In this document: positions 1 to 58,570 of the stretch, piece by piece | Position numbering within the stretch: position 1 is the stretch's first letter | Layout of the letters: each line of letters starts with the position of its first letter | From: Cyanophora paradoxa CCMP329 | Lineage: Eukaryota > Plantae > Glaucophyta | Assembly: GCA_004431415.1 (NCBI GenBank) | Contig: QPMI01000212.1 | Coordinates: 1-64,000, forward strand | Reading direction: 5' to 3' | DNA: 64,000 nucleotides | Position numbers and translations under genes: made by a program | Notes under the pieces: model-generated | Told to the model about the DNA's origin: nothing | Database searches by the model: none | The model's input: only the letters and a program-made list of their open reading frames with translations

Positions 1-159
1 ACACAGCTTAGAGATCTATATCAAACTGATGATACTTATAGAGCCATGAAAATAGCAAGTTCATGTCAGCGAAAGTATGCAGCCAATGCAGTCTGCTTTG
101 TCAAATATTTGTATGATGTCCCTTACTCAAACAGAGGGAGAAAATCGAAACATGTCTAA
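1..159 (+). CDS. 3' end of a viral hypothetical protein
   Basis: Frame 1 is open from base 1 (TQLRDLYQTDDTYRAMK...GRKSKHV) to a TAA at 157-159. Confidence 0.4.
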   Translation, partial: TQLRDLYQTDDTYRAMKIASSCQRKYAANAVCFVKYLYDVPYSNRGRKSKHV

Positions 160-363
160 ATTATTTTCCAGCATATTACTAGGCTGGGGATATGCTGTTT
201 ATTCGCTGAAATACCAAATCCTTTTTGTATCTGAACCACTCGATATATCATGTGGATAAAATTCGTAGGGATACTTTCTCGATTTCCAACAAAAAATGAT
301 TGGGGGACCCAAAACTACTTAAAGAAAATCTTCTATATATATAAAAGGGACCCCTCGCTGAAA

Positions 364-2654
364 ATGAACGCCAAACAGACAAGTTAATCAAATCGCTCGC
401 TAACTGGCTTCGTTCTGATGAGGAACTCGCCAAAAACATGATTATCCCAGTGAAACCTGACAGCAAAGACCCAGTTTCAAGCATAAGGGAGGTGCTTGGT
501 CCTGGGAAAAGTATGAGGAAGCGCTGGCAACTAATCAGTATGTATCTTGGGGCATTCTGCTCTCAGACAACATGATGGTTATTGACTTTGATGATGAGGA
601 GACTTTGAGAAATTCCGGATATGTTTCCTGATGACTTTGATGCCAATCAGCCCATGGCAAAAACTAAAAAAGGCTATCATGTCTACTTTAAACGACCTGA
701 GGAGTTCACTAAACTCAAAATCACCGATAAGGCTCCAGGCTTTAAAGGCTTTGAAAAGGTTGACCTGAAAACAATCACTGGAACTGGAACTTCTGGATTA
801 ATTAATGTTTGTCCCAGTGTCAACAAGACCTGGGTAATTGCTCCATGGGATGATACCTGTGATTTCAATGAGCCTACTGATGAGTTTAAAAAGTGGATTG
901 CAGAGAACTATATCTATAAGAGTGAGTATACTGCTAATGCTACCTCACATGATGCATTGGAAAAGAGTATTCTTAAAGAGCTGGTGGATATGGGCTTTAT
1001 GCATCCCAATATAATCTCTCAAACTGAACTGGGCTTTAACTTTGATGCTGCTAATAAGGGACTTAATTGCCCATGCTGCAATGGTCCCATGAATCGAATA
1101 ACTGGTATGTTATGAAAGCCAAAGGAGAAGATAAAAAGTATATTGTGTCCAGCTACAGTGGCAATTGCAAAAAACGATTTATCTTCATTGGAATGCAATC
1201 TGATATCTTCAATCTCATTTGATAAGTCCGCTGGTTCTGGAGCGCTCATTATGATGTCAGTCTGTGTGCAAAGAGGTACTAAACATACTTGGAGATACTC
1301 CAAAAAGTCATGGTTCAAACTCAATACTGATACTGGGATTTGGGAGCATGATGACACAAACCAAAAGATTTACTAGACATAAGTTGCCTTGTTGTCCCTC
1401 AATACCTTGGCAGGCTGTGCATTATAGCCAAAGAGCTTTGAAGGATGAAGAGAATAGAACAGCTTTCGAAGAGAATCGAAAACATTAATTTCTATTGCCA
1501 AAAATCTTAAACAATCAGGATATCGCAAATCCCTTCTGACTGATCTGCTCCCTCTGCTGAATGATGATGATTCTATGAAAAGATTGATACAGTTCAATAT
1601 TATATTGATTCGATAATGGTGTATTTGATCTGACAACTATGACTTTCAGAAAGGGGAAACTGGAAGATATGTGAGCAAGAGTGTGGTTTATGATTATACT
1701 GAGAATGTAGACCCCAAAAGTAGACCATCTCAATCAGATTTATAGAGATTGTAGATGATCCAGCAGAGCGAAACTACCTTCTGGCATCTATTGCAATTGC
1801 CCTCAGTGATCAACAAAATCACAGATTCTACATGTGGACTGGTGCTGGGGCAATGGTAAATCACTTGTTCAGGAATACTGCAAACAGATTTCAGGGCTTA
1901 TTATAGCCCTTCGAAATATCTATTGGACCAAACCTAAAAGAACTCATCAGATGCTATCCTGAACTTGCCAAACTCCTTGGAAAGCGACTTGTATTCAGTA
2001 ATGAGCTGAAGATGGTGATAAACTGCAGATCTCCAAAATTAAGGAGGTCACAGGTGGAAATGAAATGACTGTGAGAGCCTTGTTCAAAGACCCAGTAATC
2101 CTCACTCCAATGTTCCAGGTTTACATTACAACTAATGACAATTTGACTATAAATAAACCAGACTTTGCATTCAAAGAGACTTTCATACCAGAGATTCAAT
2201 AATATATTCAGAGAGAAGCCTGAAGCTGGTCAGAAGAAAGCTGACCCAACACTGTTCACACTTCTACACAATGATGATGAGTATAAGATGGCTCACATGA
2301 AGATATTACGGATATGTGGAAGAACAAAGAGGTTGAAGAGATCTTAAGAAATCCCCCTCAATCGATTATTGAACAGGAATAAACTTTATAGCTGAAATGA
2401 TAAGATTGGTGAATGGCTTAGGGATAATTCGAAGTTACCATAATGCAAACGACTTTGTTTCGAGTGATATCATTTACAAATCATACAGAAGTGTCGATGA
2501 TAAAGTTGAATGTGTTTCTGTGATGAAGAGAGTAAGGAAATCTTCAATGTGAAATCAGAGGTTAAACGAATTCAGGGAACCAGAGCAAGGGCTACATTGG
2601 ACTTCGAAAGATAACAAGGTTCAAGAAGACAATGGAGAGGATGTTGAATATTAA
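364..2654 (+). pseudogene. Prim-Pol primase fused to D5-like SF3 helicase, frameshifted
   Basis: Stitched frames give Prim-Pol motifs (IIPVKPDSKDP, GILL..MMVIDFDD, KTKKGYHVYF), a CPCC Zn-binding site, Walker A (WTGAGxNGKS, ~1835-1863), ELAKLLGKRLVFSNE and KEVTGGNEMTVRALFKDP..FQVYITTN. Many 1-nt deletions. Confidence 0.88.
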
Positions 2655-2714
2655 ACAAAACGATTTATGATTGAAATGTATATGTATTTTTATAGCCTTA
2701 CTGGAAATGGTGTT

Positions 2715-2804
2715 GTTCACAGGTGTCACAGGTCCATCCCATCTAGGGCTATAAAAAGAAAAATGACCAGGGGACGATAAAAACCTGTGAACACCTGTGA
2801 CACC
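2715..2804. promoter_or_regulatory. Iteron-like inverted-repeat element, candidate replication origin (copy 1)
   Basis: Tandem (G)TGTCACAGG units face their reverse complement CCTGTGA(A)CAC across a ~50-bp spacer, 60 bp downstream of the primase-helicase stop. Confidence 0.55.
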
Positions 2805-2871
2805 TATCGAAAAAGACCAAAATTTGACAAGAATACTTAAAGCTTACTTGATTGTGTATAGTGAAGACAAA

Positions 2872-3015
2872 ATGGCAAAGGCTCTTGAAGAAATGACCAT
2901 GATTGAGTTAGATAAATGCATTAAACATGGAGATATAGGGGCATATATCGAAATGTCACAGAGATTGATAGGTTACAATGTGTATGCAGCAAAACAAAGA
3001 GAAATAGATCAGTAA
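2872..3015 (+). CDS. Small viral hypothetical protein
   Basis: ATG at 2872 (MAKALEEM...) after an AT-rich leader. No recognisable motif. Confidence 0.35.
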   Translation: MAKALEEMTMIELDKCIKHGDIGAYIEMSQRLIGYNVYAAKQREIDQ

Positions 3016-3373
3016 ACATTCACATAACTGTTTCAGTGTCTGAGAATGCAAACAAAAAACAACAAAAGCATATTTACAAAAGTTATCTGTGACTTGATTG
3101 CAAGTATAAAGCCAATTCCTTTGTATATATTTTTATAGCTGCCTCAGTAGCATACTGAGACCGCTTTTTCTCAATTATCTTATAGACCTGGGGTCCATTG
3201 CTACTTTCAGTTGGCAAATAATATTTAATCGGTCTTCCTCTGGGTCTCTGCTCTCTTTTTGGGCTTTTCTGCGATAATAGGATGCCAGGGCTTGTTGCTT
3301 TTTATACTCTCTATATTCTGGTCCTCTCTATATCGTTTCTGCATTGCTAGAATGTGTCTTATAGCACCCTCAG

Positions 3374-3679
3374 TTAAGGCTCATCACTGGTAAACTCGAT
3401 CAAACTAATTGTATCCTCCATTAATATTTGCTGAGAAACGTTTTCGCCTGGCAAAGACTTCTCCTTGGATATCCTGTTGCTCCTGTTGCTCATATGTATA
3501 CTCTGTGGGTCTGCTGCATTGACTCCACAGAAACTGTAGACCTCCTTCTCTCTTGCTTCTGAGGCATTATCCTCATTATCTGACATCTCAAACTCCACTG
3601 TTGTCTCACAACATCCACTGTGGCAATTGCTCACCACATGCAGACTGAACATCTCGAAGAACTTTCGTATTATGTCCAT
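3374..3679 (-). CDS. Viral hypothetical protein with CxxxCC motif
   Basis: 101-aa ORF beginning MDIIRKFF..NCHSGCCE. The C-terminal frame may be affected by indels. Confidence 0.45.
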   Translation of the reverse strand: MDIIRKFFEMFSLHVVSNCHSGCCETTVEFEMSDNEDNASEAREKEVYSFCGVNAADPQSIHMSNRSNRISKEKSLPGENVSQQILMEDTISLIEFTSDEP

Positions 3680-3699
3680 ATCTCTAATAAAACAGAGAT

Positions 3700-4420
3700 A
3701 ATTAAAGCCAAACTCGTCTTTATATACTGTTGGGCAACTCCCTTTTCTACTTCAGCTTTGGTGGAACCAGTTCAATGGTTCCCTTTGGGTTTTTGTTTTC
3801 ATTTCATCTACTGCCTGCTCATCGATTTGGTTCTCTTTCTTAGCAATAACTGTTTATCTGGACACCAGTGATTCCATTTATAAACTTCCTTCGAAGCATC
3901 TCCTTTAGCTTGGCTCTCTCTTCTTCTCAGTAACATACTGCTTCAAGGCACTTGATTTGGCTTCCAGATCTTTGAGTTTAGCAGTCATCTCATCCCATTG
4001 AGCCTTGGGAATTCGATGAACATTCTGAGTGGAGCAGTCTTGTATGTGACTTCACCAGCCATAGACTGAATAACCTTGTCTGATTCCTTACTAAGACCTT
4101 CACCTTGCGAGCCAGTGAAAGATCTTGCAAGCCTAAACCTTTATCATCAGCAGCCCAATAATTCGCCTGGCACCCTCAGCAACAGCTTTCATTTTGAGGC
4201 TTCTGGTGAGATGTTGAGTTGGTCACTGGTTGAAGCCTGTGGGCTTTGTCATCGACTGATTCCTCATAGGCAGCATTAGAGGGTCCTCTTCTTGCTGTGA
4301 GGGCTTTACCTCATTCATACCATTGAACTTCAGTGGATCTGTGTTAATGGATCCATTGTTTCCACCACCTGAATAGCCAACAGCCCCAGCTGGAATCCCT
4401 ATCTTTCGTTTGGGAGGCAT
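3700..4420 (-). pseudogene. Basic/Lys-rich viral hypothetical protein (possible core protein), frameshifted
   Basis: Starts MPPKRKIG (NLS-like). Coding-like K/E-rich sequence continues across frameshifts. The end is approximate. Confidence 0.4.
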
Positions 4421-4497
4421 TGTATCTTTATTAGAATGAGAGATAATTTTATAACCGCGTTTATATCGCATCAATTTATTGCTATGGACTTGGCTTT

Positions 4498-5226
4498 TCA
4501 CTTCTTTGGGGCTTCCTCTTTTTCTGGTGGTTTCAGTTCATCCTCTTTCTTTTTTGGCTTCCTGTGGAAGCGAGGAAATGGGAAATCTTTCACAGCTCAG
4601 CTTTATCTACATAGTATTTAACTGAGTAGTTTGCAGAGGACCAAATGATATATTGATAGGAGTGAACATACTCTTCAAACATCTTGTAGAAATCCTCTTT
4701 ATTTCGCATTATATTGTATTCTTCCTCTATGGCTTCAAGTTCTTTGCGATTAGCAGCACTGAGAAACATAGCATAGTCAGAATTAACTCGAATAGTCGAC
4801 GAGACTTTCCTTAGCTTTTGTGTGATGCAGATAATGGATATTTTCGAATGGCGACCTCTGGAATACAGAGATCCGATTATTTTATCCCTTGTGAGATCGA
4901 CTATCTCATTATCGATTAAATCATCTAAAACTACACATAACTGGTTAACAGGTTCACCTTTCTCTATTTTCTCTTGCCTCTCATCTAGCAATTTAGCAAT
5001 GTAAGGGGCATCCCATTTTCCCAGTTGCAGTGTTGCCACTTTATCCCAGAAATGATTGAAGCTGGTTCCACTCACAACTAATACAACATCAATCTTTTTG
5101 GCATCATGTAATTGCTTTAACCAATACTTTACAGCTTCTGATTTACCAGTTGCTGATTTTCCTATTGCCAATACACGAAATGGTGTTCTATCATTTCACC
5201 AGCCACAATTCATCCAAATCAGTCAT
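4498..5226 (-). CDS. A32/FtsK-HerA family genome-packaging ATPase
   Basis: Walker A GKSATGKS, Walker B VVLDD, and the family motif SRGRHSKISIICITQ..IRVNSDY. Core ORF is 4590-5171; the termini are reached by inferred frameshifts. Confidence 0.92.
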
Positions 5227-5288
5227 TGTTGTATATCTTTCTTAATAAAGACATATAAAATAATGCAGGAGACTGAAATCGTAACAAT

Positions 5289-6647
5289 CTATAAATTAAT
5301 TCTGCGTAAACCATCTTTGTCCAAAATTATATAGGAATGCATGAGAGCGCGAACATTAACATCGATTACCTTATCTGAAGGCATGTAGAGGGTGAGGAAG
5401 GAAGAAGAGGAATTTGTTAAATCAACATAACCAGACTGGGCAATATTTCGAATCGCCTTCTCTCCATCAATGCAGAAACTTAAACCTGAAAGGACATATT
5501 TATCTGCGACCTTATCCATGTTAGAGCATTTGAAGGCATCAGCAATTAGCTCAGCACCTTTGAGTAGGGAAATTGGCTCAGTGGCAAAAAGTCGCTGTCC
5601 ATTAATTTCAACAGTGAAAGTAATATCTTTGGAGTTAGCATAGGTCTTAAGAACACTGTGGAGCCATTGGATTTGTCAACAGTTTCATGATCACGAACTG
5701 AAACAAGCAGAGCATATACAAGACCTGAGATTTGAGAGAGGTTAATTCGATTGGTTGGGCATTGCCCTTGGCAGGGAAAGCACTAGCATCTACAAATCCA
5801 ATATCAAGGGAGGAATAGCCATGCCAGTAGTCTTTACTTTTTCAATTACAGTAGCGAAAAGCTCATCAGAAACATTAATAGCATGCATGTAAAGGCGAGG
5901 AGAAGTAATAGAAATAACAGGAGTTGTTGCACCAAGACTGAAAGTGGTGATGTTTTGACCAACATGGGCAAGGTTCCATCTGTAAAGTTTCCAAGACCAT
6001 CATCAGCAGTTGCATCAACAGTTCCAACAGCAGTTGTGAGTTCACGACCACCATAGGAAGTTTCAACATAACCCTTTCCAGCATCCTTAAACCAAACAGT
6101 AACAACCATTTCACCAGATAAAGCACCAAGGGGAAGGTAGTGATTTAGCCAAGGCACTGGGATCTCAACGAAAAATGAGCCACCAAGTCGGTTGGTTCCA
6201 TGAGCAGGATACCATGAACCATGCCCATTGAGCGTTTCTTTTTAGCTAGTTGATCCTCCGAATAATAGACCAGGGGGAAATGAGCAAGGAAATCAGAAGG
6301 ATGTGGTAGGTGTAAGATCCATAGGTAATTTCAAGTCGCTGAACTAAGCACCAACTGGGCGAGTGTATCCATTGCGAACAAGGTCCGTATCACCAGCAAA
6401 AGTGATGGCTGGAAGGTCGAAAGCAAGTTCGAGTTTTCCACAGAAATTGTAGCGAGGTAGCTTGAAGGAAATGCGATTTCCAACATTATTCTCAAAAGTA
6501 TTGCTGGGATTCACAACAACTAGAACTGGCTTAGACTTGGATTCGAGACCAAGCATAAGGAGTTATCCAGGAAAAAGGCTTTCGCCTCCTCTGGGGTTGT
6601 TAGGCTTCTTTCAGCGAAAGTCTTTGAAGAGTGGAAGTGATATCCAT
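5289..6647 (-). pseudogene. Major capsid protein (double jelly-roll, PLV-type), frameshifted
   Basis: ~450-aa beta-rich product from fragments: RISFKLPRYNFCGKLELAFDLP, FFVEIPVPW..YLPLGALSGEMVVTVWF, TFTVEINGQRLF, GLSFC..SGYVDLTN..LTL..VNVRAL. It lies between the ATPase and a penton. Confidence 0.8.
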
Positions 6648-6700
6648 TATATTCTCTTTTATTATACTGCAACATAAAAAATCTACCAATGATCCTTAAT

Positions 6701-7709
6701 TTATGCGAAGCTTGTAATAACTGGATAGGAAGGGTGAAGCTGTGACATTCGCATCTTAAAGTATTCATAAACTGGGTCCCCAGCTGGCTCATCACCATAG
6801 CGAATTTCAAAGGTAAGATGAACAGGTTGACCCTCAAAATCAATTGGTTCATTAATAGCATTTACAATATCAACCGAGAAAGTGGATAATCCAACTTTCT
6901 TATTATAGTATTTGTAAAGTGGGTGAGCTTCTGTTGAATTGTAAACAACATGCTCTCCATAGTCTTTATCAGGGACCACTATTTTATGGAAGTAACCAGT
7001 CAGGAGACCATCCCCACATTGCACCAGATCACCCAGCTCCTTTACCCTCACAAACAAAACACTGTCCCTTGTCTTTTCAGGCTCAAAAGAAGATATAATG
7101 CCATTCACTCGACCATCAGTAAAGATTCCATCAGTGAGAGCATCATAAACTTGGGATTTGATTGGGGAATTCCCATATCTTCCAGGATCAAGACCAAGCA
7201 GTCTAGCTGAACTCAATAGCTTTTGGATTGTTTGTTGGCTTGGGTTTACAGCAAGTGAGAAAGCCAGGTAAAAAGGCACTGCCGAGTGGAATATAATTCG
7301 TTTCAGTGACTCATCCCATTTGCAGCGAATGGATGGTTGGGGAGTTCTGCCAATGAATTTTGAGTTGATTACATTCACCAGCTGTTGGTGGCTTTGGATG
7401 GGGGTCTCGCGATTTACCATGAATTGTTTCCATTGTTCAAAATCAGCAGCTGGGCGAGTTGTTGGAATTCCTGAGCTTCCAGCTCCTGGAGTTTGTTCCG
7501 AATAATAAATACTAAATGTGTTATCAACTGTGACATCTCCTGCTTTGGTTTCACCACTCACCATAGGGATGCTGTTATAAAATTCGGCTGAGACCAGTCT
7601 CACAGCCTCACATTCTCATAACTACTGGGAGTCGAGCCACAAAGCTTGATGTGGGACCATCACCAGAGATTGTATTAAATGAGCTAACCTCGATGTAATC
7701 CACAGGCAT
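6701..7709 (-). CDS. Minor capsid protein (penton) 1
   Basis: SSFVARLP..RLVSAEFYNS, LLGLDP, LFVRVKEL, LSTFSVDIVNAINEPIDFEGQPVHLTFEI match the single jelly-roll penton pattern. One frameshift near 7610. Confidence 0.8.
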
Positions 7710-7737
7710 TCTTCTTTATCTATATTTATATATTAAA

Positions 7738-8659
7738 ATGAACCGGCTCGTTAATATTGATAGCAGGGATAGAAGCCAAGGACAAAATGAAAACTCTTAC
7801 AGGGTCACCCTCACAACTCCAGTAGAGAGACCAAGGAATGTAGGGTTCTCTATGCAGAGATTCCAAACAGTATCTATAACAGTGTGGGAACTGATCATCT
7901 AACAGTTCAGTTTAATTACCAAGATGGTTCATATAACCAAGTGATCACACAACAAGTGTATCCCTTCCCAGTGGCTACATCAATCAGGTCATTTTGGGTA
8001 ACACACCTTATAATTATGGGCTGAACTATTCAAGCTTCCAAACCATTGCAGGCAAAACAGTAGCTTTGAGTTCAAGATATTCTATAACCCAACTACCTAT
8101 AAAGTGGAGTTTTACAGTAACCATGAGTTTCGTTTTATTGCAAGCAACCAGAGAATAGGGAAGCTTTTGGTGTGAGTTCTACTGAATACACCAATGGGTA
8201 TTATAGCACTCCTCCTGTTGGTGGATCACCCTATCGACCTGAGAACCTGTTAAAGTATGATGCAAACCTATTACACCTGATCACCCAGCATGGGAACCAC
8301 CTTTTCAGGACCCAGACTCTCATCTAAGCCCTTGCAATATTATTTTGACAGCAGAAAGATGTCTGATATGAATGCTGAGCAGTATCTATACATGCACATT
8401 AAAGAGCTTGCCCCTTTTGCCAGCAGACACAATATAATTCCGAAATCGCAACACATAACCAGGGGCAATCCTTAGATTGCAATTGAGTAAGGATATAGGT
8501 GGCTATGTTTACCATAGTGGTGAACATGCAGAATTCATTCAGATAAATGACAGAAACCTGGTGATAAGGGAACTCACAGTTGAGTTTAAAGATTACTTTG
8601 GTGAACTGATTGATATGAATGGAATCGATAATTCTTTTCAGTTGGAGTTTATCGAATAA
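7738..8659 (+). pseudogene. Minor capsid protein (penton) 2, frameshifted
   Basis: N-terminal LVNIDSRDR and C-terminal IRELTVEFKDYFGELIDMNGIDNSFQLEF are typical of penton-like proteins. Several indels lie between them. Confidence 0.78.
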
Positions 8660-8827
8660 AGGCACCTGTAAAGTCAACTCTCATTGTGGGAGCATTCACA
8701 TACACAAGGGATAAATGCGAATATATTTAATTCTGAGAGAAAAACCTATGTAAAAGCATCCTTGATGCTGAGAGGAAATCCACTCAATAGAGCCACATCA
8801 CCTGAGTTGTGAGCATTGTTAATGTTC

Positions 8828-10201: not shown

Positions 10202-10244
10202 CTTTTACTTATCAGGAATTTTATAAATCCATATAGTAAAAGCC

Positions 10245-13200
10245 ATGAGCTTCAATTACCCACCAAATCTAGAAACCATTCAAGATGATAATGCAAGCAG
10301 CACCAAGCATGTGAACTTTGATAATATTAAAGTAAAGGGTTCAGTTTCGATTGACCACAGTTCCGATAATTCATCCAAGACTCAATCAAGGGAGCATGCT
10401 TTATCTGTGAATCAAACCGATCCAGATAAGGAGGAAGTTAGTGTTGCTTTTAGCTTGGGTAATGTGAAAGCAAACCAAGTGGCAGAGATCAAAGCAACAA
10501 GAAGGAGACCTAGGAAACTGAAAACCAGTGGCACTCACCCAGATATACCTTCCAGGTTTGATAGTGGTCGATTGATTTTCAATGTTCAAGATGAGCAGGG
10601 CAAACAGAACACAGCTTTGCGAATTTACAATGAGGGCAGCACTGCAAAAGCTGAGGTCCCCCAAGTATTGCAAGTGGGTCCCATTGCCAACACAAATCAG
10701 GTCTCCTACACAAATGATGTCTACCCCAAGGATATTACATATGACTTTGCAAGGAATGAGCCTTTTGGGTTCTTTACTCCAAAAGATGTCCATCAAAAAA
10801 AGCCATCAATTACAATCAACAGTAGCCCCAGTCAGCCAGTAGCAATCCATTTACATCCTGATTTAGTCGAAATGGATAGGCACCTTTTGCCTTTGTATAG
10901 CAATGTGAAAGACCTTGGAATTAGAACCAGGCAATGGCGAAATATCCATGGCAGCAATGTGTATGCAAATGGGGAGAAACTTGTGAGTGAGAAAACTCTA
11001 AGGGAAATAATTGAGCATTATGGTCCCAATGGACCAACAGTCCCATTCCCTATTCCATTTCCAAATGGACCTCCCGATTTAACACCAAAGAAACAGCCTG
11101 GAAGAGAATACACAGCAACTGAAGATGTAGCCTTTGGGCAGCATATTGTTAGTTGGGAGCAAGTTCGCAATAAACCTATAATTGAACCCAGAAAGCAAAT
11201 AGATGAGCAGTATTTACCTCCTGAAGTCGATATATTAGAGCTTGATGAATATCAATTCGTTCCAGATGAGGAAGAGTATTTACCAGATGGTTTTGACCCA
11301 CAAGAATATGAATATGATCAGTATGACCCCAATGAGGAGGAGATACTACCAGATGGCTTAGATCCCCAAGAGTTTGAGTATGAGCAGAACTATGAACCTG
11401 ATGAGGAGTATTTGCCAGATGGGCATGATCCACCAGCTGTTGATTATGAGCAACCTTATGAACCCCATGAGGAATTGTTACCAGATGGATTTCGACCTGA
11501 GATCTGGGAGTTCTTTCCTGATTATGAACAAATAAATAATAAACCTGCAAAGTATCCCCCAGAGGATCACAATCATGATTGGGATGAGATCTTAGGCAAA
11601 CCACAGAAATACCCACCAGAAGACCACAGGCATGATTGGGGTGATATTGATGGGATTCCAGATAAGTTTGCAGCAAGCAACCATGAACACACCTGGGATG
11701 AGATCAATGACCAACCAGAATTTGCAAAAGTTGAGCCTCTTGCTACTCTGGGAGTTTCTCTTTACCAGACTTGCAATGTCCCTGAAAGGATCTTTTTGAA
11801 TCACCACTATGTTCATGTGAATGGGACACTTGCGAATTCAGCTATGAGAGGACCACTTCATATTAGGACATTACCAGGCTCTTATAATCCACCACCTGAA
11901 CCAGGAGCAACCATACCAAATATCTTTGTGTCAAGCTACATGGAGGCTGACATTCCCACAGATACATTCAGAGTCCCAACAGACCCAGCAACCTACCAAA
12001 ATTACAACTCTGCTATACAGGTTCATGTAGCAGATGTAAGCAGTTTAGATGGCTCAAGACCAATGATAGTTTTCAGTCGAGATAAGTATTCCTACATTCC
12101 CATAGTGGGAACTGCAAATGATAATTATGGAAGGGCAGAGCTTGCATGGATTAAAACAGATTATGGTGGGGTTCTGGAAGCCAATCAGAGGATGGCAGCA
12201 AAAAACATACACAATGAAAATATTTCGAGAGTGGTCACAGAGGATTATCTAGAAGATCAAGGATATATTGATGAAGGTGAACTCACAAATATTCTTTCTC
12301 TTTTTGTGATCAAAAATGACACAAACCTTACAGTCACTTCCAATATCTACACCAGTAACCTTTATACAAGTAACATTTTCACAAGTAACCTATGGGCAAG
12401 TAACATTTGGACAAGAAAACTATGGGCAGATGATATTTACACAAGTAATCTTACAGTGTATCGAAATATAACAATTGGAACACAAAACACTATACAAATA
12501 CTTTATAGACCTTACTACGCTGTTACAACTGTCATTGATCCAGCCCCAATTATTCCAAATTGTATATTTGCATGGAAAGCATCAGGTCAACATGGTCAGT
12601 TGATATATTATCAAGGTCAGATATATAACAGAGTTACTACACAGATACCATATCTAACAAATTATTCAAATTGGGAAACTGTTTATTATTATTTGAATGC
12701 AACCCTAAACAATCAAATTTCGATTGGGAAAGAATTAAACATGGCTTATAGGAATAGTGTTTCAATAGATTGGTCATTAGGTCTTACATTATTCTTTATA
12801 GGTAGGATCAATACTACAAATCCTTCTTATATGTTGAGTATAAGGGATAGTTCTTATCAAAATTGGATTGGATATGGTTGTAAAAATCAAAAGTTTGGTG
12901 TTTCACTACAAATTCAAAACGATATAGAAAATGCAACTCCTCCATTATTCGATGCATCATATATTTATAATTCGTGGAATTATTGGGATTTCACTGTTTC
13001 CTCAGAGCAAATTGTCGTAGGAATGGGTGGTATTGATATTGGAACATTATCGGGTGATTTTCTTCCACCTTCTAATTTTGCATCATTTGGTTCTTCTGTT
13101 GCTAATGGAGATCTTGCCGAAATTATCGTTTTCAATCGTGCGTTATCTATTGAAGAAAAGAAGGCGGTTAGATATTATATACAATTATTGTATGGATTTC

Positions 13201-14588
13201 CAAATACGCAGCCCATATTGAATAATGAAGATCTTAAAATTAATTCGAGCAATATATTTATTGAAAATCTCACAGTTACCAAAAATGCAACTCTACCACA
13301 TCATCCAACATCGAATGTTGTTTTAGATTGGTTAGCAAAACAAAAACACACAAAAGCAGATATTACGGATTTCGCCCATACTCACACAAAAGATCAAATC
13401 ACAGATTTCGCCCATACTCACACAAAAGATCAAATCACAGATTTCGCCCATACACACACCAAAGATCAAATAACAGATTTCGCACACACTCACACAAAAG
13501 ATCAAATAACAGATTTCGCACATACTCACACAAAAGATCAAATAACAGATTTCGCCCATACTCATTTATGGGAGCATATCACAAATCCTCCGTTAACCTT
13601 CCCACCTGATTCACACACTCATGATTATTCAGAGATTACAAATAGCAACCACAGGCACCCATGGAGCGAAATAGACGAACAGCCAGTTTTTGCCCAATTG
13701 AATGCAATCGGAAACGTTTTTAATGGAGTCACACTTTACCAATCAATTAATACACCTGAAAGGCTATTTTTGAATGATCATTATGTTAGTCTCAATGGTT
13801 CATTTACAGGTGAAACAGGCACACCGATGGTGGGAACTCTTGCAGTAAGATTACCCAGGGATCCAATCGTAAATGGAGTGTATAGTGGCGATTTCAATGT
13901 AGGAGTAAACGATACTTTCCCCAGTATCTATGTTACGAATTATCACCCAGGAGAAATAGGACAAGTAGCGGATTTTTCAGCAGCTATTCAAATTAACGTA
14001 ACAGATCAAAGCGCATATGATGGAGCAAGACCTAAAATAGTATTCACAAGGGAGAAAGTTGTAAACTATCTTCCCGTTGCGGGACAACCCACAGATGATC
14101 ACGGTAAATGTGAGATGGCGTGGATTAAAACAACAACAGGAGGCGCCTTAGAAGTCAATCAGAGAATGGCGGCGAAAAACTTACACAATACAACCCTTTC
14201 AGGTGTTGTTACAGATGATTACCTAACCAATAAAGGGTATCTTACAACAGCAGATTTAAGCAGCTATGTAACAGAAAGTGAATTGGGAACGACTCTAAAT
14301 AATTATACAACAGATGCAGAGTTAACAGCAGCTCTAGGAAATTATTTACCTCTTACAGGTGGGACAGTTAATGGAACTGTAAACGCTACTAGTCTACAAA
14401 TTGGTGGAAACACAATTCCAAAAGGATATGATTTCGATCAATTAGATGTAGTATCAACAGATAGAAGCGCAAATAATTGGAATTTGAATTGGTCACCAAG
14501 AACAGGACAAACAGGATGTTATACAACACCACAAAATGATGAAGATTGTAGCGGTTGTTTTATGAGGTGGACTGTCCCACAGGTATGA
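10245..14588 (+). CDS. Large virion fibre protein, N-terminal part
   Basis: 1447 aa with acidic EEYLPDG repeats, HxHxWxEI..KP and AHTHTKDQITDF phage-tail-type repeats, TSNL/I repeats, a LamG-like segment (GDLAEIIVFNRALS) and YLPLTGGT. Confidence 0.8.
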   Translation: MSFNYPPNLETIQDDNASSTKHVNFDNIKVKGSVSIDHSSDNSSKTQSREHALSVNQTDPDKEEVSVAFSLGNVKANQVAEIKATRRRPRKLKTSGTHPDIPSRFDSGRLIFNVQDEQGKQNTALRIYNEGSTAKAEVPQVLQVGPIANTNQVSYTNDVYPKDITYDFARNEPFGFFTPKDVHQKKPSITINSSPSQPVAIHLHPDLVEMDRHLLPLYSNVKDLGIRTRQWRNIHGSNVYANGEKLVSEKTLREIIEHYGPNGPTVPFPIPFPNGPPDLTPKKQPGREYTATEDVAFGQHIVSWEQVRNKPIIEPRKQIDEQYLPPEVDILELDEYQFVPDEEEYLPDGFDPQEYEYDQYDPNEEEILPDGLDPQEFEYEQNYEPDEEYLPDGHDPPAVDYEQPYEPHEELLPDGFRPEIWEFFPDYEQINNKPAKYPPEDHNHDWDEILGKPQKYPPEDHRHDWGDIDGIPDKFAASNHEHTWDEINDQPEFAKVEPLATLGVSLYQTCNVPERIFLNHHYVHVNGTLANSAMRGPLHIRTLPGSYNPPPEPGATIPNIFVSSYMEADIPTDTFRVPTDPATYQNYNSAIQVHVADVSSLDGSRPMIVFSRDKYSYIPIVGTANDNYGRAELAWIKTDYGGVLEANQRMAAKNIHNENISRVVTEDYLEDQGYIDEGELTNILSLFVIKNDTNLTVTSNIYTSNLYTSNIFTSNLWASNIWTRKLWADDIYTSNLTVYRNITIGTQNTIQILYRPYYAVTTVIDPAPIIPNCIFAWKASGQHGQLIYYQGQIYNRVTTQIPYLTNYSNWETVYYYLNATLNNQISIGKELNMAYRNSVSIDWSLGLTLFFIGRINTTNPSYMLSIRDSSYQNWIGYGCKNQKFGVSLQIQNDIENATPPLFDASYIYNSWNYWDFTVSSEQIVVGMGGIDIGTLSGDFLPPSNFASFGSSVANGDLAEIIVFNRALSIEEKKAVRYYIQLLYGFPNTQPILNNEDLKINSSNIFIENLTVTKNATLPHHPTSNVVLDWLAKQKHTKADITDFAHTHTKDQITDFAHTHTKDQITDFAHTHTKDQITDFAHTHTKDQITDFAHTHTKDQITDFAHTHLWEHITNPPLTFPPDSHTHDYSEITNSNHRHPWSEIDEQPVFAQLNAIGNVFNGVTLYQSINTPERLFLNDHYVSLNGSFTGETGTPMVGTLAVRLPRDPIVNGVYSGDFNVGVNDTFPSIYVTNYHPGEIGQVADFSAAIQINVTDQSAYDGARPKIVFTREKVVNYLPVAGQPTDDHGKCEMAWIKTTTGGALEVNQRMAAKNLHNTTLSGVVTDDYLTNKGYLTTADLSSYVTESELGTTLNNYTTDAELTAALGNYLPLTGGTVNGTVNATSLQIGGNTIPKGYDFDQLDVVSTDRSANNWNLNWSPRTGQTGCYTTPQNDEDCSGCFMRWTVPQV
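13347..13565 (+). repeat. 36-bp coding tandem repeat x6 (HTKDQITDFAHT)
   Basis: Six near-identical units CACACAAAAGATCAAATCACAGATTTCGCCCATACT are directly visible. Confidence 0.95.
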
Positions 14589-16186
14589 AATCATTTTATA
14601 TTCAGCATATGCCTTGGTATAATGGCAGATATTTTGATATCTATGGTCAGACTCTCAATAACAATCAGCATTTCTTAAAACGTGTAAACGATTATCAAGG
14701 AATACAGTCAGTAAATCATGATGGGACAAATAATACTATCTTGTTTGTATCAATTAATTGCGAGTTTTACAAGTATATTTATGTTCAAGGTCGAAAAGGT
14801 CGCATTCATCTCACAGGAGTTTTTGGTTGGAGTAGACAAAGAGCAACGGATAATGAGGTTGGTATGATCTCTTGGGATAATATTTTTAGTAAACCATCAT
14901 TTTATTCAGCCGCAGACCTTCCACAAACAGCGACATGGCCAACAAATACATGGTTAAAATCAACCGACACTGTTCCGCGAATTTGGTTTGGAAATGGTGA
15001 TTGCACATATATTCGAGGTTATGGAAATGGTGATGGTGTTTCAATTGAATTCAGAGACTCAGCAGATGGAGCAATATTAAAGTCTTATAACAATGGTAAC
15101 TTTTGGGTGAAAAACACTATTACAGCACCCACTATTAATGCTACTACCAAACTCCAAATAAATGGTAATGATGTCCCAAAGTTTCACACAGCGGATTCAT
15201 CAAAAGGAGGAATTGAATTTAATAGATGTTCTTATAACGATTGGGAGTGGGCATGGAGTTCATCATGGGATCCATATTATAATTATGGTTCTTACGTTTA
15301 TAATAAGCAATCGGATGATCAAACTTCAACCGCTTGGATAGACTTCGATATTCCAGAAGGATATCTCAAAGGAACAGCGTTTTTAACTTATCTACCTTGG
15401 ACTAACTCACGAATTTTTGAAATTTGGGGAGTAAATCGACAAGGAAATGAAGTTTTTATTACATCAGTGAATAGTTATCAACCATACGCCACATCTCCTG
15501 ACAGTAACCACAGCGGTTTAAATAATGTTCCTATACATCTCGGTAATCGATTTTTGACTATTCGGATTAGACCAAAGATTGGAAGAGTTCATATTATGGG
15601 TATAAGTTACATGAAAATTTGGGTTGGACATAGTTATGGAGGTCACACCGGTTATATTCATTGGAATAATGTTTATAGTAAACCAAATCTTTTAACAGGC
15701 ACTGTGGGAAGTTGGTTTAATTCCAGTGATGGATACAATCGTATCCATTTCGGAAATAACACCTCTACATACCTGAAAGGAAGGGGAAATTATCCAATTG
15801 TATTTCGAAATGAATTAGATTCTGATGTTTGTTGGATTGATCATGACGGGCGGATGTGGATAAACAATTATTTAACACAAGGAAGTGACATAAGATACAA
15901 AACAGATATTAAAAAGATAACCGGCGCTCTCAAAGCTGTTGAGAAATTAGAGGGAGTGAGTTTTAAACGAATTGGAAGTGAAAAAGATGGAGTTAAATTA
16001 GGTTTAATTGCACAAGATGTTCGAAAGGTAATACCAGAGGTAGTTAATGTTAAAAAAGACGATGGCTACCTATCTCTTGAATACACAGGTTTAATTCCAG
16101 TTCTCATTGAAGCTGTGAAGGAGTTGTCCCAAAAATGCAAAGATCTACAGGATCAAATAGACCAAATTAAAAATGTCAAAGTATAA
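14555..16186 (+). CDS. Fibre protein C-terminal part with peptidase S74 intramolecular chaperone
   Basis: SDIRYKTDI..ALKAVEKLEGVSF..GLIAQDVRKVIPEVV..LEYTGLIPVLIEAVKEL plus a coiled coil. Probably continuous with the upstream ORF. Confidence 0.88.
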   Translation: MFYEVDCPTGMKSFYIQHMPWYNGRYFDIYGQTLNNNQHFLKRVNDYQGIQSVNHDGTNNTILFVSINCEFYKYIYVQGRKGRIHLTGVFGWSRQRATDNEVGMISWDNIFSKPSFYSAADLPQTATWPTNTWLKSTDTVPRIWFGNGDCTYIRGYGNGDGVSIEFRDSADGAILKSYNNGNFWVKNTITAPTINATTKLQINGNDVPKFHTADSSKGGIEFNRCSYNDWEWAWSSSWDPYYNYGSYVYNKQSDDQTSTAWIDFDIPEGYLKGTAFLTYLPWTNSRIFEIWGVNRQGNEVFITSVNSYQPYATSPDSNHSGLNNVPIHLGNRFLTIRIRPKIGRVHIMGISYMKIWVGHSYGGHTGYIHWNNVYSKPNLLTGTVGSWFNSSDGYNRIHFGNNTSTYLKGRGNYPIVFRNELDSDVCWIDHDGRMWINNYLTQGSDIRYKTDIKKITGALKAVEKLEGVSFKRIGSEKDGVKLGLIAQDVRKVIPEVVNVKKDDGYLSLEYTGLIPVLIEAVKELSQKCKDLQDQIDQIKNVKV

Positions 16187-16189
16187 TAA

Positions 16190-16495
16190 ATGGCGACCTA
16201 TCCTCTTGGTGGAACCACCTATTCTACTGAGCCTGTTGCGCTTTCTTTTGATACAATCACCCTTGTAAACGCATTACAAACAGTTGAAAAAACGATTCAG
16301 CAAACTAACAAGCTCTCACCAGTTGTCAATGAGTATAAAAACCTCTTGGTTAATGTCCTTGCTCAAGCTGCATATGGTGACCCTGTTGCTAAATACACTG
16401 AGTGTGATAACAACATTAAAGCAATGACATCCAACCTGCAAGTTCTTTCAACTGTTTACCAATCCCTTGGATCGAATTTAATCACTTTGGCTTGA
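16190..16495 (+). CDS. Viral hypothetical helical protein
   Basis: Intact 101-aa ORF tightly packed in the fibre cluster. Confidence 0.7.
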   Translation: MATYPLGGTTYSTEPVALSFDTITLVNALQTVEKTIQQTNKLSPVVNEYKNLLVNVLAQAAYGDPVAKYTECDNNIKAMTSNLQVLSTVYQSLGSNLITLA

Positions 16496-16534
16496 TTGCA
16501 GTTTATTTTTCTTTCCTTCTTAGTAAAAGAAGCA

Positions 16535-17380
16535 ATGGGTGAATATAATCGAGTTCAACTGCCTATATATTCCCTTGGATCCCCTGCAATGCATTTTCGC
16601 CAGCATGAAGTAAATGATGAGGTTCGTGGTTTAGAATCCACAGAGAGACCCAATTCCAATGGCAACTCCTTTGATAAAAATTCGATTATTCGAGTTAAAG
16701 AGCTGAGAGCTGATAAGAATTCTGGTGTGGTTAAAACAACTCGACTTCTTGTCACAAATGCTAACTTTTTCCAGCCTACCAATGGAGGTCCTGATGCTTA
16801 CAGTGTTGATCTGAAAGCCCTTGATTTCGATAAGAATTCTGCTGCTGTTACTGTGAGATCAGGAGGAGCATTTATTGGGGGTGGCTGTCGAATTTCAGGT
16901 CAGCTTTCATCCTCAATTTCGTATAATGATGTCCCAGATACTCTAGAGCAAAATGTAGAAGACCCCCAACGAATTCGATTATATACTCCTGTTGCACAGC
17001 AGCCACTAGTTCAATTTTACATTGGATATACTGTTACTCTTGAAAACTCGGAATTAATTGAAGGAACCAAAAGAGTACTGAGAGGTCTTGCGATTCCATC
17101 TGCAATGCTTTCCCTTTGTAGAGCCAACAACAATCAAGTAGGTCATAAATACTATTTCAATGTTCAGGGATATAATCATTTCGGTTATGGCTACTGTGTT
17201 TATAATAATAATTTCACCTTTGACTTGTTTGTTACAGATATTGGGTTATATACTATAACTCTTATCGGTTTGAGAACAGATATAGCCGCTGTATCAGCTC
17301 TTAGAGGTGTAACTCCTGATACTCTTTCAGTTACAGGGTTTTACATGGAGCCAGATGTAATTGATGACCCAACCCCATAA
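16535..17380 (+). CDS. Short fibre-like protein, paralogue A
   Basis: ATG at 16535. Shares ELRxDKNxGxVKTTxLLVTNANF and SGGAxIGxGxRxxG with the next ORF. Confidence 0.75.
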   Translation: MGEYNRVQLPIYSLGSPAMHFRQHEVNDEVRGLESTERPNSNGNSFDKNSIIRVKELRADKNSGVVKTTRLLVTNANFFQPTNGGPDAYSVDLKALDFDKNSAAVTVRSGGAFIGGGCRISGQLSSSISYNDVPDTLEQNVEDPQRIRLYTPVAQQPLVQFYIGYTVTLENSELIEGTKRVLRGLAIPSAMLSLCRANNNQVGHKYYFNVQGYNHFGYGYCVYNNNFTFDLFVTDIGLYTITLIGLRTDIAAVSALRGVTPDTLSVTGFYMEPDVIDDPTP

Positions 17381-17403
17381 AAGATATATCCCTTTAATGT
17401 AAA

Positions 17404-18237
17404 ATGGCTGAGCAACCCCCACTTGAACGAATTATTACACCACAGCTATCATTAGCTGCCCCAGCAAACCATGTTCTGCAGCATGCTACTTTTGATGATG
17501 TGGAAGGTCTCCAATCAACAGAGGTCCAACCTACAATGAACACCTTTGGTTCCACCCATAAACTGAGATTACAGGAACTCAGATGTGATAAAAATAATGG
17601 AATAGTTAAGACAACTAAGCTACTTGTGACAAATGCAAACTTTTCTGCTCATTATGGAGACCCAGATAGCTATGGAGATCCTCTGTCTACTTATTCTTTT
17701 GAATCTAGGTCGGGAGCTATTAACTGCAAATCGGGAGGAGCTTATATTGGTGATGGTCTTAGGGTTGGTGGGGCTGTTGGAGCGCCTCTATTTGTGAATG
17801 ATCAGCCCAATCCCATTGATCCTAACACAAGAATTCGAACCTATGTCCCCAGCATGAATGCCCCATACATTATAAAGATATTCCCCATTGTTGTAAATGA
17901 ACAAACAGCAGTAGTAGACTCTCTTGTTGAAATTGGTGACCACTACAAGGTAGTTGTGGATATCCCACCAGATGTATATGCTGTATGTCAAGTAGAGGGT
18001 GGAACTCCTAATTTTGCAGTTGTGATCACCCCATATGATAATTTTGGTATTGCTTATCATGGAGTCAATTTCGGTTTGGAAGACTATCAGTTCTTAGTGA
18101 GAGCCACCAAGTTTGGTATCTACAAGTGTGTGATGTTTGCAGAGAGAACCGATTTTATTGCAAAGCAGAATACCTATGCTGAATACTATGGGACAAATCG
18201 ATATTTCCCCATTTTTGGGCAGGATACTGCTCCATAA
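17404..18237 (+). CDS. Short fibre-like protein, paralogue B
   Basis: 277 aa, a clear paralogue of 16535-17380. Confidence 0.75.
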   Translation: MAEQPPLERIITPQLSLAAPANHVLQHATFDDVEGLQSTEVQPTMNTFGSTHKLRLQELRCDKNNGIVKTTKLLVTNANFSAHYGDPDSYGDPLSTYSFESRSGAINCKSGGAYIGDGLRVGGAVGAPLFVNDQPNPIDPNTRIRTYVPSMNAPYIIKIFPIVVNEQTAVVDSLVEIGDHYKVVVDIPPDVYAVCQVEGGTPNFAVVITPYDNFGIAYHGVNFGLEDYQFLVRATKFGIYKCVMFAERTDFIAKQNTYAEYYGTNRYFPIFGQDTAP

Positions 18238-18259
18238 GAATATTGGTTATATATAGAGT

Positions 18260-18532
18260 ATGGATAGTAAAACAAAAAAGTTTATTGATGCTGCTATGAC
18301 AGTTCATGGTAAAGATAAATTCGATTACAGTGAGACACATTACATCAAAGCTCAAGAGAAAGTATCTGTTAGATGTTTGCAGTGTAACAAGGTGATCCTT
18401 ACATATCCCTTTAATCATGTGAAGGGATCAGGTTGTAGGGAATGCAACAAAAAGCATTCTCAGGCTTACAGGAAAAGGGCTACTTCATCAATCAAAGTAG
18501 AGTACAGGGATATTTGCATTAGGTTCGATTAG
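18260..18532 (+). CDS. Zinc-ribbon protein (DUF723-like, endonuclease-associated type)
   Basis: FIxxAxxVHG..FDYS..Y....KVxVRCxxC....P.NHxxGSGCxxC pattern, common in phages and large DNA viruses. No nuclease domain is attached. Confidence 0.7.
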   Translation: MDSKTKKFIDAAMTVHGKDKFDYSETHYIKAQEKVSVRCLQCNKVILTYPFNHVKGSGCRECNKKHSQAYRKRATSSIKVEYRDICIRFD

Positions 18533-18561
18533 GATTAATTAATTTTTCTAAGGTATTCTTA

Positions 18562-18960
18562 ATGGAGACTAAATACAGAGGCTTTCATGTAATGCTTGAT
18601 TACAAGGCTAAAACAGCTATAGCAACAGGTTATGAGCATGTTAGCTTTCTTGGTAATTGGATTATGAGAACCCTTGAACAAGCAATATTGAGACAAGGTA
18701 TTAGGATTGTTCATAAACACTGTGAGATATTTGATGGGAAACTATCACCTCCTGGTTTTGCATTGGTTCTGCTATTAGATGAAAGCCATTGTACAGCTCA
18801 TTGTTATTCCAATGAAGGCATGTTAGCAATTGATATATTCAGTTGTGGTAAAGAAGCTCAGCATAAAACACAAGCAGTTGCAGATGAGATCGATAAAACA
18901 ATGAATTTCCTCACATTTGAGAAGACTGAGAGACATAAACATGATAGATTCCCGTTTTGA
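18562..18960 (+). CDS. speD: S-adenosylmethionine decarboxylase proenzyme (prokaryotic-type, pyruvoyl-dependent)
   Basis: 132 aa with GxHxxxD, F...PPGF..V.LLDESH.TAH.Y..EG..AIDIFSCG. The E-S self-cleavage site and the conserved Cys are intact. Confidence 0.9.
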   Translation: METKYRGFHVMLDYKAKTAIATGYEHVSFLGNWIMRTLEQAILRQGIRIVHKHCEIFDGKLSPPGFALVLLLDESHCTAHCYSNEGMLAIDIFSCGKEAQHKTQAVADEIDKTMNFLTFEKTERHKHDRFPF

Positions 18961-19402
18961 TAGGTTTATATAATGATAATCAGGGTAATTTACCTTTTTT
19001 ATTACAAAAGCTTTCTACAATGATTATTTTCCGGATTCCGGTCATTCTTTACGATAGAAATTCTACTGTATGATGTAGCCGAAATATGAATGCACCCTAC
19101 ATTAAGCAATGTCAAATAATTAGAATAATGTTCGATTTCCTTACACTAAAACCTCAGCATCTGCCCAAGATTCCCCCTATAATTAAAGTGGACTCAAGGT
19201 TGACTCATATTAATCGTAAAAGTAGTAATAGTATATGGATTTTGTTACGAATTCAATGCAAGGGTTGACTAAGTGGGTTGAGTTGACTCAAATTTCACAG
19301 GAAATAACAATGAATCAGAGTATAAAATGCATTTTTTGAATCAACTACACCAACTAACACTGAGATTTTCACAATATAAGAGGTCCTTACTGAATATGGT
19401 AT

Positions 19403-19494
19403 GTGTCACAGGTGTCACAGGTTTATCCCAGCTCAAGCCCTATAAAGAGTGATTTTCCCTTTCGATGGGATGGACCTGTGACACCTGTGACACC
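19403..19494. promoter_or_regulatory. Iteron-like inverted-repeat element (copy 2, inverted relative to copy 1)
   Basis: GTGTCACAGGTGTCACAGG ... CCTGTGACACCTGTGACACC. Bases 19464-19490 are the exact reverse complement of 2717-2743. Confidence 0.6.
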
Positions 19495-19745
19495 CAATTA
19501 TTTCAAAAATCCTAAGGGTCCCCCCTTAGACTCATTAAAACATGATAATAACATATCAATTTCATGTATAATTACGATTGGATTCAATAAGAGATCTATT
19601 TGTTTTATTTAACAAATGAATCTTTTATGGATCTTAATCGAGTTTAGCGATATGTTTCCGATTAAATGAATTAAATTTAATTAAATTTAATCGAGAAAGT
19701 ACATGAATATAATATCGATTAAATCAATTAACTTTTAGACCAATC

Positions 19746-20028
19746 ACACATAGTAAAATGCGGAGTTTTAACCAGAGGCAAGATCTAATTGAGATTCAGT
19801 TATATTATTCGGAAATATATACAGATTATCGATAGACTCAGTAAGACTAATCGGAAAATAAGAGAAATTTACGATAAAATATCGAAAAGAATACAAAATA
19901 ATCGAAATAAATGAATATTCGATAAGATATACACAGATTATCGATTGATTGAAATAGAATATACGAGATATATCAACAAAATCAATTAAGATAAGCCGAG
20001 GGTTAAAACTCCGCATTTTACTATGTGT
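19746..20028. repeat. Terminal 283-bp unit bounded by perfect 28-bp inverted repeats
   Basis: ACACATAGTAAAATGCGGAGTTTTAACC (19746-19773) and its reverse complement (20001-20028). The latter ends exactly at the AT/GC boundary. Confidence 0.9.
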
Positions 20029-57885: not shown

Positions 57886-58570
57886 GCTGACCGCAGGCTA
57901 CAGCTACAGGAGGGAATGGAGCTTCTGTCTTTCTGTCGTTCTCCAGCAGATGCCGCATTGTTCGGGCGGGGGCGAAGGAGCTATAGGAAGAGGGTAGGGG
58001 GGGGGGGGGGGGGGGGGGGCTTGGAGACTAGCTATAGAGGGGACTGCAGATGGGTGCCTTCATCGTTCCGGGAGTCCGGCGGGCGGGGGCGGGAGGGCGG
58101 CTAGGCGGCGGATCCGAAGCCGGAGGCGGCGCGGGGGGCGGCGGAGGCGACGTGGTGGAGGGGCCGGCCGCGGGCCCCCGGCCACTCCGCCGCCCTCGCC
58201 TCCGCCAGCAGCTCCAGCGCCTCCGCCAGCAGCTCCAGGGCCCCTCAGATCAGATCAGATCAGATCTGATCTGATCTGAGCGCACCGCGGGCGAAGGCGG
58301 CGTTGTCGAAGTAGACGCGGCGCCGGCGGGCCTCCCGCGCGGCGGCGAGGGCCGCCCGCAGCGCCGCGAGGCGCCCCGGGGCTCCGGCCCCCGCCGCCAG
58401 CGCCACCGCCGCGTCCTCGTGCCGTAGTACGCCTGCGCGGAGCAAATTAAACGAAGGCGCCCCGGCCCGCGCCTCAGCTGCATGCAGAGGCCGCGGGAGA
58501 AGGCGCGGAGGCGGGGCGGGGCGGGGCCGGGCGGGCCTTGATCATGAGGCTGGCCATGGGGAAGATGGGG
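57886..58570 (-). repeat. Diverged segmental duplicate, copy A (3' exons of a hypothetical gene)
   Basis: Colinear with 60071-60800. Encodes PGRLAALRAALAAAREARR..YFDNAAFAR and ALELLAEARAAEWPGARGRPLHHVA. Confidence 0.8.

Follow-up and report, generated by a model that had tools for sequence, protein, structure and literature searches.

Polinton-like viruses of Cyanophora paradoxa and the integrated element

Polinton-like viruses (PLVs) of glaucophyte algae, Cyanophora paradoxa among them, have been catalogued in two surveys. The first of these (PMC10120064) reported 366 matches to the major capsid protein (MCP) in this species, in two clusters, MMPC21 and MMPC29, that were treated as new PLV clusters; a protein is assigned to a cluster if its MCP shows at least 25% identity over at least 30% of the length to a member. 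The second (PMC12220804) lists, in Table S6, 156 glaucophyte PLVs, of which 89 encode lipases, 66 AdoMet_dc, 49 pPolB, 40 D5_N, 37 S74, 8 Prim-Pol and none a protease. Here we analyzed a window of 64,000 nucleotides, positions 1 to 64,000 of the forward strand of C. paradoxa CCMP329 contig QPMI01000212.1 (assembly GCA_004431415.1), in which the right-hand part of an integrated PLV occupies positions 1-20028 and host DNA follows at 20029-64000. Very probably, this element represents a single insertion from a PLV family that is present in C. paradoxa in multiple copies, and it carries a likely arginine decarboxylase. The likely substrate of this enzyme is what is new here, a modest addition; the entry module of such viruses has already been described, and the decarboxylase gene has already been tabulated.

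The GC content of the window steps abruptly at 20028/9, from 0.385 in the element to 0.664 in the flank. Four of the 32 open reading frame (ORF) fragments of the element pass the Pfam cut-off (Pox_A32, Patatin, Peptidase_S74 and AdoMet_dc), and further scans, with PHROG and NCBIfam, identify a fragment of a primase-helicase, tail-fibre matches for the ORFs of 1447 and 533 amino acids, and a zinc-ribbon endonuclease module; Rfam gave no match in 1-21000. Judging by sequence, the element encodes three of the components by which PLVs are operationally defined, namely, a predicted double jelly-roll MCP, an A32-like ATPase and a primase-helicase replicase. The initial annotation had proposed an AT-rich, integrated PLV-type virus of about 20 kb, and the GC step, the bridged junction described below, and the capsid, ATPase and replicase matches all bear this out. 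Like Maverick-Polintons, it is an integrated virus with a double jelly-roll capsid protein, an A32 ATPase and a putative penton, but the protein-primed polymerase (PolB) and the maturation protease that define that group have no Pfam or PHROG match among the 32 fragments, that is, in the 20 kb within the window, and a primase-helicase is present instead.

The MCP gene (5289-6647, minus strand) is interrupted by 9 single-base gaps and, in a frameshift-aware alignment over 5292-6647, 272 of 441 residues (62%) are identical to a C. paradoxa protein, P0003, which was retrieved by a search with the C-terminal fragment of the MCP. A structural model of P0003, built with four homologues, was compared with the PDB using Foldseek, and all the matches listed are double jelly-roll capsid proteins, with PBCV-1 Vp54 first (E 2.5e-11) and the MCP of SGIV as the other top match; a search of BFVD gave a similar result. 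P0003 is also identical, over the 400 residues shown, to an MCP row in Table S2 of PMC10120064 with an HHpred probability of 98.47. These observations support the initial assignment of a double jelly-roll fold, which we predict for the MCP of the window. A second member in the same table, of 465 amino acids, has a start that is visibly closer to the MCP of the window (PMC10120064). A search of 1.84 billion proteins with the MCP, made without a profile, yielded 6 matches, of which one, the 3989-residue repeat protein P0005, was dropped as spurious before alignment. The adjacent gene (4451-5226, minus strand) encodes an A32-like genome-packaging ATPase (Pox_A32 at 4593-5195, E 1.7e-10) with 4 single-base gaps and 220 of 256 residues identical to its homologue P0001 in a frameshift-aware alignment. 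Scans of IMG/VR and of JGI metagenomes with the ATPase and the MCP found no relative.

Two further genes are plausibly single jelly-roll minor capsid proteins. Penton-like gene A (6701-7711, minus strand), with a frameshifted N-terminus, shows Atlas feature matches of 0.97 to proteins of Preplasmiviricota and Nucleocytoviricota, with a recognition value of 2254, which is weak; its single-sequence fold has a pLDDT of 33, and its C-terminus contains what we take to be a penton motif. Penton-like gene B (7738-8659, plus strand), which is frameshifted as well, starts with IDSRDR, presumably also a penton motif, and its C-terminus matches the gene that precedes the putative MCP in a PLV-like IMG/VR contig, L085 (22 residues, E 0.008). 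The two pentons of the initial annotation are thus plausible and partly shown.

The same annotation suggested that this combination of genes might define an undescribed lineage. This suggestion fails because both the MCP family and the accessory genes are already catalogued for glaucophyte PLVs: the MCP shares 62% identity with a C. paradoxa entry in a published list of viral MCPs, well within the cluster threshold cited above (PMC10120064), and PMC12220804 describes the accessory genes or counts them in its tables. The described PLVs of C. paradoxa share with the element the MCP family, the A32 ATPase, the primase-helicase, the lipase, the discoidin-patatin fusion, S74, AdoMet_dc and the lack of a protease, so that the gene set is largely known. 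The tables of the two surveys, however, give counts per host group and not the co-occurrence of genes in one element or the gene map of the present copy. The element is therefore best regarded as one more mapped copy of a catalogued family.

The junction at 20028/20029 is genuine. In all three DNA runs, a short-read contig that starts at 20002 runs into the flank without a mismatch (depths 33, 106 and 36); these contigs contain 27 letters of the element, below our 31-letter rule for bridging, and contigs beginning at this point are the pattern expected from many insertions with one common end. One contig of a presumed RNA run bridges the junction, spanning 19552-20045 and continuing through four canonical introns and host exons. 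The spliced contig and its translation define a host gene (20029-21650, minus strand; four introns) that is interrupted by the insertion: 463 codons can be read without interruption before the junction is reached, and another 14 within the element, with the stop at 19986-19988, so that the insertion site lies inside a coding exon. Reading the spliced contig through into the element (19986-21650, minus strand) yields a shortened host protein to which the virus contributes 14 residues. Single contigs of the element reach depths of 1838, 5476 and 4348 in the three runs, up to 55, 52 and 120 times those of the flank; contig depth is a rough guide and not a copy number, and the high values fit the 366 MCP matches reported for the species (PMC10120064). 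Parts of the element are also covered by contigs of the presumed RNA runs, but an element present in so many copies may have contributed carried-over DNA, and therefore, we do not claim expression. At the other end, 5 to 6 contigs per DNA run extend beyond base 1, so the element is incomplete in the window, and its left end and integrase lie outside it. The integrase is likely of the rve type because, among the 156 glaucophyte PLVs in Table S6 of PMC12220804, 85 have rve and none has a tyrosine recombinase.

Three other readings of the block were considered. A chimeric assembly, in which a free virus or a contaminant was joined to host DNA, would account for the sharp change of composition and the error-rich sequence on the left, but was rejected in view of the junction contigs in three DNA runs and the spliced contig across the junction, and can be practically discounted. 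The dozens of indels in 1-8750, and the many substitutions that also separate the window from the majority contigs and thus mark it as a distinct copy, might indicate a decayed fossil with truly broken left-hand genes. However, each of the 13 frame breaks in the MCP and ATPase genes is the loss of one base, and neither gene contains an in-frame stop; the ORFs to the right are open over about 10 kb (8828-18960), including one of 1447 codons; and, of the 97 indel rows in the comparison with the short-read contigs, the 12 listed are all bases absent from the window, 5 of these being present in all covering contigs of at least one DNA run. In individual contigs, 7 gaps are accompanied by 1 or 2 substitutions over about 330 bases (in one contig of 337 bases, 7 versus 2). 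The frameshifts are thus likely long-read consensus errors, and therefore, the copy may be intact; a decayed fossil is quite improbable. Somewhat less improbable, but still unlikely, is a small relative of Nucleocytoviricota, mriyavirus-like or from a PLV group that resembles nucleocytoplasmic large DNA viruses (NCLDVs), rather than a PLV in the strict sense. The fold matches rank the MCPs of PBCV-1, an iridovirus and other NCLDVs above those of virophages, but few PLV capsids have been solved, which biases this ranking. The 32 fragments gave no Pfam or PHROG match to the HUH endonuclease, VLTF2/3, Mriya48 or similar proteins, although frameshifted small ORFs or the missing left part could hide them and no dedicated profiles were used. 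Regions related to Mriyaviricetes are reported in a glaucophyte assembly in a preprint (10.1101/2025.04.19.649669), and NCLDV-like PLV groups with rve integrases exist according to another report (10.64898/2026.06.19.733378); both MCP clusters of C. paradoxa were, however, treated as new PLV clusters (PMC10120064). Several points weigh against the assignment to an inserted PLV copy that we prefer: the integrase, the left end and any target-site duplication lie outside the window; the P0003 model has a pLDDT of only 46 and TM of about 0.3 and represents a homologue, not the gene of the window; both penton assignments come from motifs and weak matches; and the comparison with the short reads was made at the contig level, so that some of the indels may be real.

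A SpeD-fold decarboxylase and its likely substrate

Near the right end, the element encodes a pyruvoyl decarboxylase of the SpeD fold (18562-18960, plus strand; 132 amino acids; AdoMet_dc E 1.8e-11) that is likely an arginine decarboxylase (SpeDA). The catalytic residues S75, H80 and C95 are kept, and in the available part of PMC10407285, these residues are stated to be common to all SpeD homologues regardless of substrate. Against TIGR03330, the equivalog model of S-adenosylmethionine (SAM) decarboxylase (AdoMetDC), the protein scores 45 bits, below the cut-off of 75.65. A scan of GTDB found 392 relatives, and the best 80 of these are all archaeal proteins from metagenome-assembled genomes (MAGs), with 39-56% identity; the titles of 41 name Poseidoniales, Thalassarchaeaceae or marine group II, and those of the other 39 only Euryarchaeota, Methanobacteriota or Thermoplasmatota. 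The 64 archaeal ORFs that we extracted have an almost identical core, SPPGF...DESH..AHCYS..G.LAID.F.CG. A gene of the deoxyhypusine synthase family (DHS/SpeY) is present in 78 of the 80 best loci, the two lacking it being short, and a SpeB homologue is found in 34 of the 80. According to PMC10407285, assays showed marine group II proteins in such an arrangement, and algal proteins closely related to them, to be arginine decarboxylases that do not restore spermidine. In pairwise comparison, the viral protein reaches 106-110 bits with the best of the archaeal relatives, versus 33-38 bits with four phage AdoMetDCs that were validated in PMC9992855. With the SpeDA of marine group II archaea, Nannochloropsis and Tribonema (PMC10407285), the viral protein thus shares the near-identical core, the above level of identity and the Ser, His and Cys residues; the difference is that the viral gene stands alone, with neither speB nor speY, and is known here from its sequence.

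Because the nearest prokaryotic relatives are archaeal proteins with SpeY, in a clade that has been shown to decarboxylate arginine, the viral enzyme probably converts arginine to agmatine, whereas activity on SAM is improbable. Ornithine was rejected as the substrate: the Gln, Thr, Phe and Tyr around the cleavage site that are diagnostic of SpeDC, an ornithine decarboxylase, are all absent, in a comparison made by eye with the SpeDC domains of figure S5 in PMC10407285, in which the positions had to be deduced. In one marine group II archaeon (L012:4001-5305), the SpeD homologue is fused in a single ORF to a deoxyhypusine-synthase-like (SpeY) domain.

The initial annotation took the gene for a SAM-consuming counter-defence gene, and arginine decarboxylation has to be weighed against a true AdoMetDC that either depletes SAM, and so weakens the methylation of host DNA, or feeds spermidine synthesis. 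Apart from the AdoMet_dc match and the intact Ser, His and Cys, this possibility is favoured by the CpG methylation that, in the excerpts of PMC12344493, is found on repeats and virus-derived genes of C. paradoxa and silences the latter; by the CpG depletion of the element, in which the observed/expected ratio falls to 0.36-0.39 in the coding part, the last kilobase having 1.04 and the flank 1.1; and by the true class 1b AdoMetDCs encoded by algal giant viruses (PMC9992855). The score below the equivalog cut-off, the nearest prokaryotic relatives, which sit with SpeY in the SpeDA arrangement, and the lack of substrate specificity of the catalytic residues (PMC10407285) all point the other way, and no spermidine synthase was found among the 32 ORF fragments in the Pfam scan. 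The CpG depletion fits silencing by methylation and lends no support to a SAM drain once the clade of the enzyme is known. Since its sequence places the protein among SpeD homologues that decarboxylate arginine, the SAM-consuming reading lacks support, and we rate a true AdoMetDC in either of these roles as quite unlikely. Other observations tell against arginine decarboxylation: the patterns for the GTDB scan were drawn from the alignment of the query itself, which favours the clade found; a SpeD tree with 35 rows (13 of the 64 extracted archaeal ORFs, 11 IMG/VR proteins, 4 validated AdoMetDCs, 6 homologues and the query) does not resolve the backbone and leaves the viral protein in a polytomy; of the two candidates for the proline diagnostic of true AdoMetDCs, that of HxWP is absent and that of PxG is present, and neither is invariant among the four validated phage AdoMetDCs; and the link to the assayed SpeDA runs through taxon and gene order.

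Related SpeD-fold genes were found on eleven IMG/VR contigs, of which 5 are PLV-like, 2 belong to giant-virus MAGs, 1 is a phage and 3 are unclear. The PLV-like contigs (L085, L090, L091, L092 and L094) were recognized by an ATPase, a primase-helicase, a putative MCP or a collagen fibre, and their decarboxylase genes, 29-36% identical to the one described here, lie beside A32 ATPase, primase-helicase or fibre genes. They differ from the present element in that their putative MCPs have no tblastn match to the C. paradoxa family and their decarboxylases group apart on a supported branch of their own (97/88). L085 (18 kb) differs further by its collagen fibre and by a gene that, from its motif, we take to be tyrosine-recombinase-like; it also contains a LicD-family gene. 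For three cryptophytes, Table S6 of PMC12220804 gives AdoMet_dc in 45 of 706, 10 of 177 and 17 of 57 elements. The main text of that paper does not contain the word "decarboxylase", the family appearing only as a column of the table, and the result lists of our literature search held no paper discussing SAM or arginine decarboxylases or polyamines in PLVs or virophages. On balance, we favour the view that the "AdoMet_dc" genes of PLVs are arginine decarboxylases of the marine group II type, a recurrent auxiliary gene for agmatine in eukaryotic viruses of 20 kb, present in glaucophyte PLVs as well as in PLV lineages unrelated to them and also found in giant viruses.

Replication genes, entry module and host flank

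The replicase gene, a primase-SF3 helicase (Prim-Pol/D5-like), lies at 364-2654 on the plus strand in many frameshifted pieces, and its start is approximate; it was delineated from PHROG and NCBIfam matches and a three-frame reading. Positions 2005-2199 match a PHROG DNA primase (E 5e-11), TIGR01613 and DUF5906, whereas the N-terminus has no match to Pfam, PHROG or NCBIfam profiles and contains what we take to be Prim-Pol motifs. Thus, the PLV core proposed initially holds for the A32 ATPase, the MCP and the SF3 helicase end, and its Prim-Pol part comes from the assumed motifs. About 60 bp after the helicase stop, there is a palindrome of mirrored 9-bp direct repeats (2715-2804), which is likely the origin of replication. 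A second copy, at 19403-19493, was detected by its 72% identity to 2696-2804 and its fold. The exact pattern of the palindrome occurs at four IMG/VR loci on three contigs, adjoining a primase-helicase gene at two of the four; it is shared with phage-like contigs (L096-L099:4001-4100), one of which has two copies, as in the element. The summed contig depth over 1-3000, the primase-helicase region, is about one third of that over 3000-9000, the capsid module, dropping near the palindrome; this would fit swapping of replicases within the family, depth being unable to rank the parts. The element ends in a terminal segment of 283 bases (19746-20028), with the arms of a perfect inverted repeat of 28 bp at its two ends (19746-19773 and 20001-20028). 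Unlike the remainder of the element, these 283 bases are not CpG-depleted, and the region is rich in TCGA, with 8 occurrences in the last 529 bases.

Between the capsid module and the decarboxylase lies the predicted entry module. A patatin phospholipase is fused to a discoidin (F5/8 C) domain (8660-10201, minus strand; open ORF 8828-10201, with the end of the domain in other frames); the same ORF matches Patatin (E 1.8e-20) and, just under the cut-off, F5_F8_type_C (E 6.7e-6) in Pfam. Aligned to patatin 1oxw, it retains the GGGxRG, GTSTG and DGA motifs, and its C-terminus matches the factor VIII C2 domain. On the plus strand, the fusion is followed by a fibre-like protein of 1447 amino acids (10245-14588; PHROG tail and tail fibre matches to E 7e-12), with an array of 12-residue tail repeats encoded by a tandem repeat at 13347-13564, and by a 533-residue fibre (14585-16186; PHROG tail fibre E 1e-28) with a C-terminal S74 autocleaving chaperone (Peptidase_S74 E 4.4e-15; PDB 6f45). 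Downstream, also on the plus strand, are an ORF of 101 amino acids (16190-16495) with no family match in Pfam or PHROG, a tandem pair of paralogs of 281 and 277 amino acids (16535-18237; members 16535-17380 and 17404-18237; 33% mutual identity, E 2e-40) that might be short fibres, and a 90-residue zinc-ribbon protein (18260-18532; PHROG endonuclease E 3e-9) similar to N-terminal modules of HNH endonucleases. Neither member of the pair matches Pfam, PHROG or NCBIfam, and the second had no phage match. The Pfam and PHROG matches and the patatin motifs thus support the entry module of fibres and patatin-discoidin that the initial annotation recognized; of the three fibres it counted, the two longer proteins have tail-fibre matches and the paralogous pair has no family match. 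According to PMC12220804, S74 fibres occur throughout the PLVs from most groups of eukaryotes, and discoidin domains, single, paired or fused to patatin, occur in 11 glaucophyte PLVs, with a proposed role in entry or endosomal escape.

The flank is eukaryotic, with fragments of a P2X receptor and an ABC-2 transporter, both below the cut-off, and short spliced introns. The P2X-receptor-like fragments lie at 41369-43700 (plus strand) and the ABC-2 transporter-like ones at 50573-56393 (minus strand), with introns that are short and GC-rich. The host part also contains near-perfect long inverted repeats (49967-50278 and 51972-52128, with arms of 148 and 71 nt and a spacing of 15-16 nt), a 130-bp tandem repeat (48666-48983), and a segment duplicated about 2.25 kb apart (57949-58536 and 60203-60765).

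Taken together, the predicted genes suggest how such a virus might function. An rve integrase encoded in the missing left part would integrate the element; the primase-helicase might copy the genome from the adjoining palindrome; and the A32 ATPase would package it into a double jelly-roll capsid with no maturation protease. Trimeric fibres, matured through the S74 chaperone, could attach the virion, and the lipase, anchored via its discoidin domain, might breach the membrane. Agmatine would be supplied for polyamine synthesis or for neutralization of DNA charge during replication, and host CpG methylation would silence the element between active phases.

No isolated virus of cultured C. paradoxa was found in the literature examined. 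If the frameshifts are indeed assembly errors, PLV copies in the C. paradoxa genome that appear decayed may be intact and inducible. A virus of 20 kb retains this 132-residue enzyme, whose annotation in the only table to include it is probably wrong. Should its product be agmatine, then a polyamine gene is present in small integrating viruses, and this bears on the competition of PLVs with hosts and giant viruses for polyamines; if the assignment of the PLV genes to arginine decarboxylases is true, PLVs would be the smallest viruses of eukaryotes for which a rewiring of polyamine metabolism is known.

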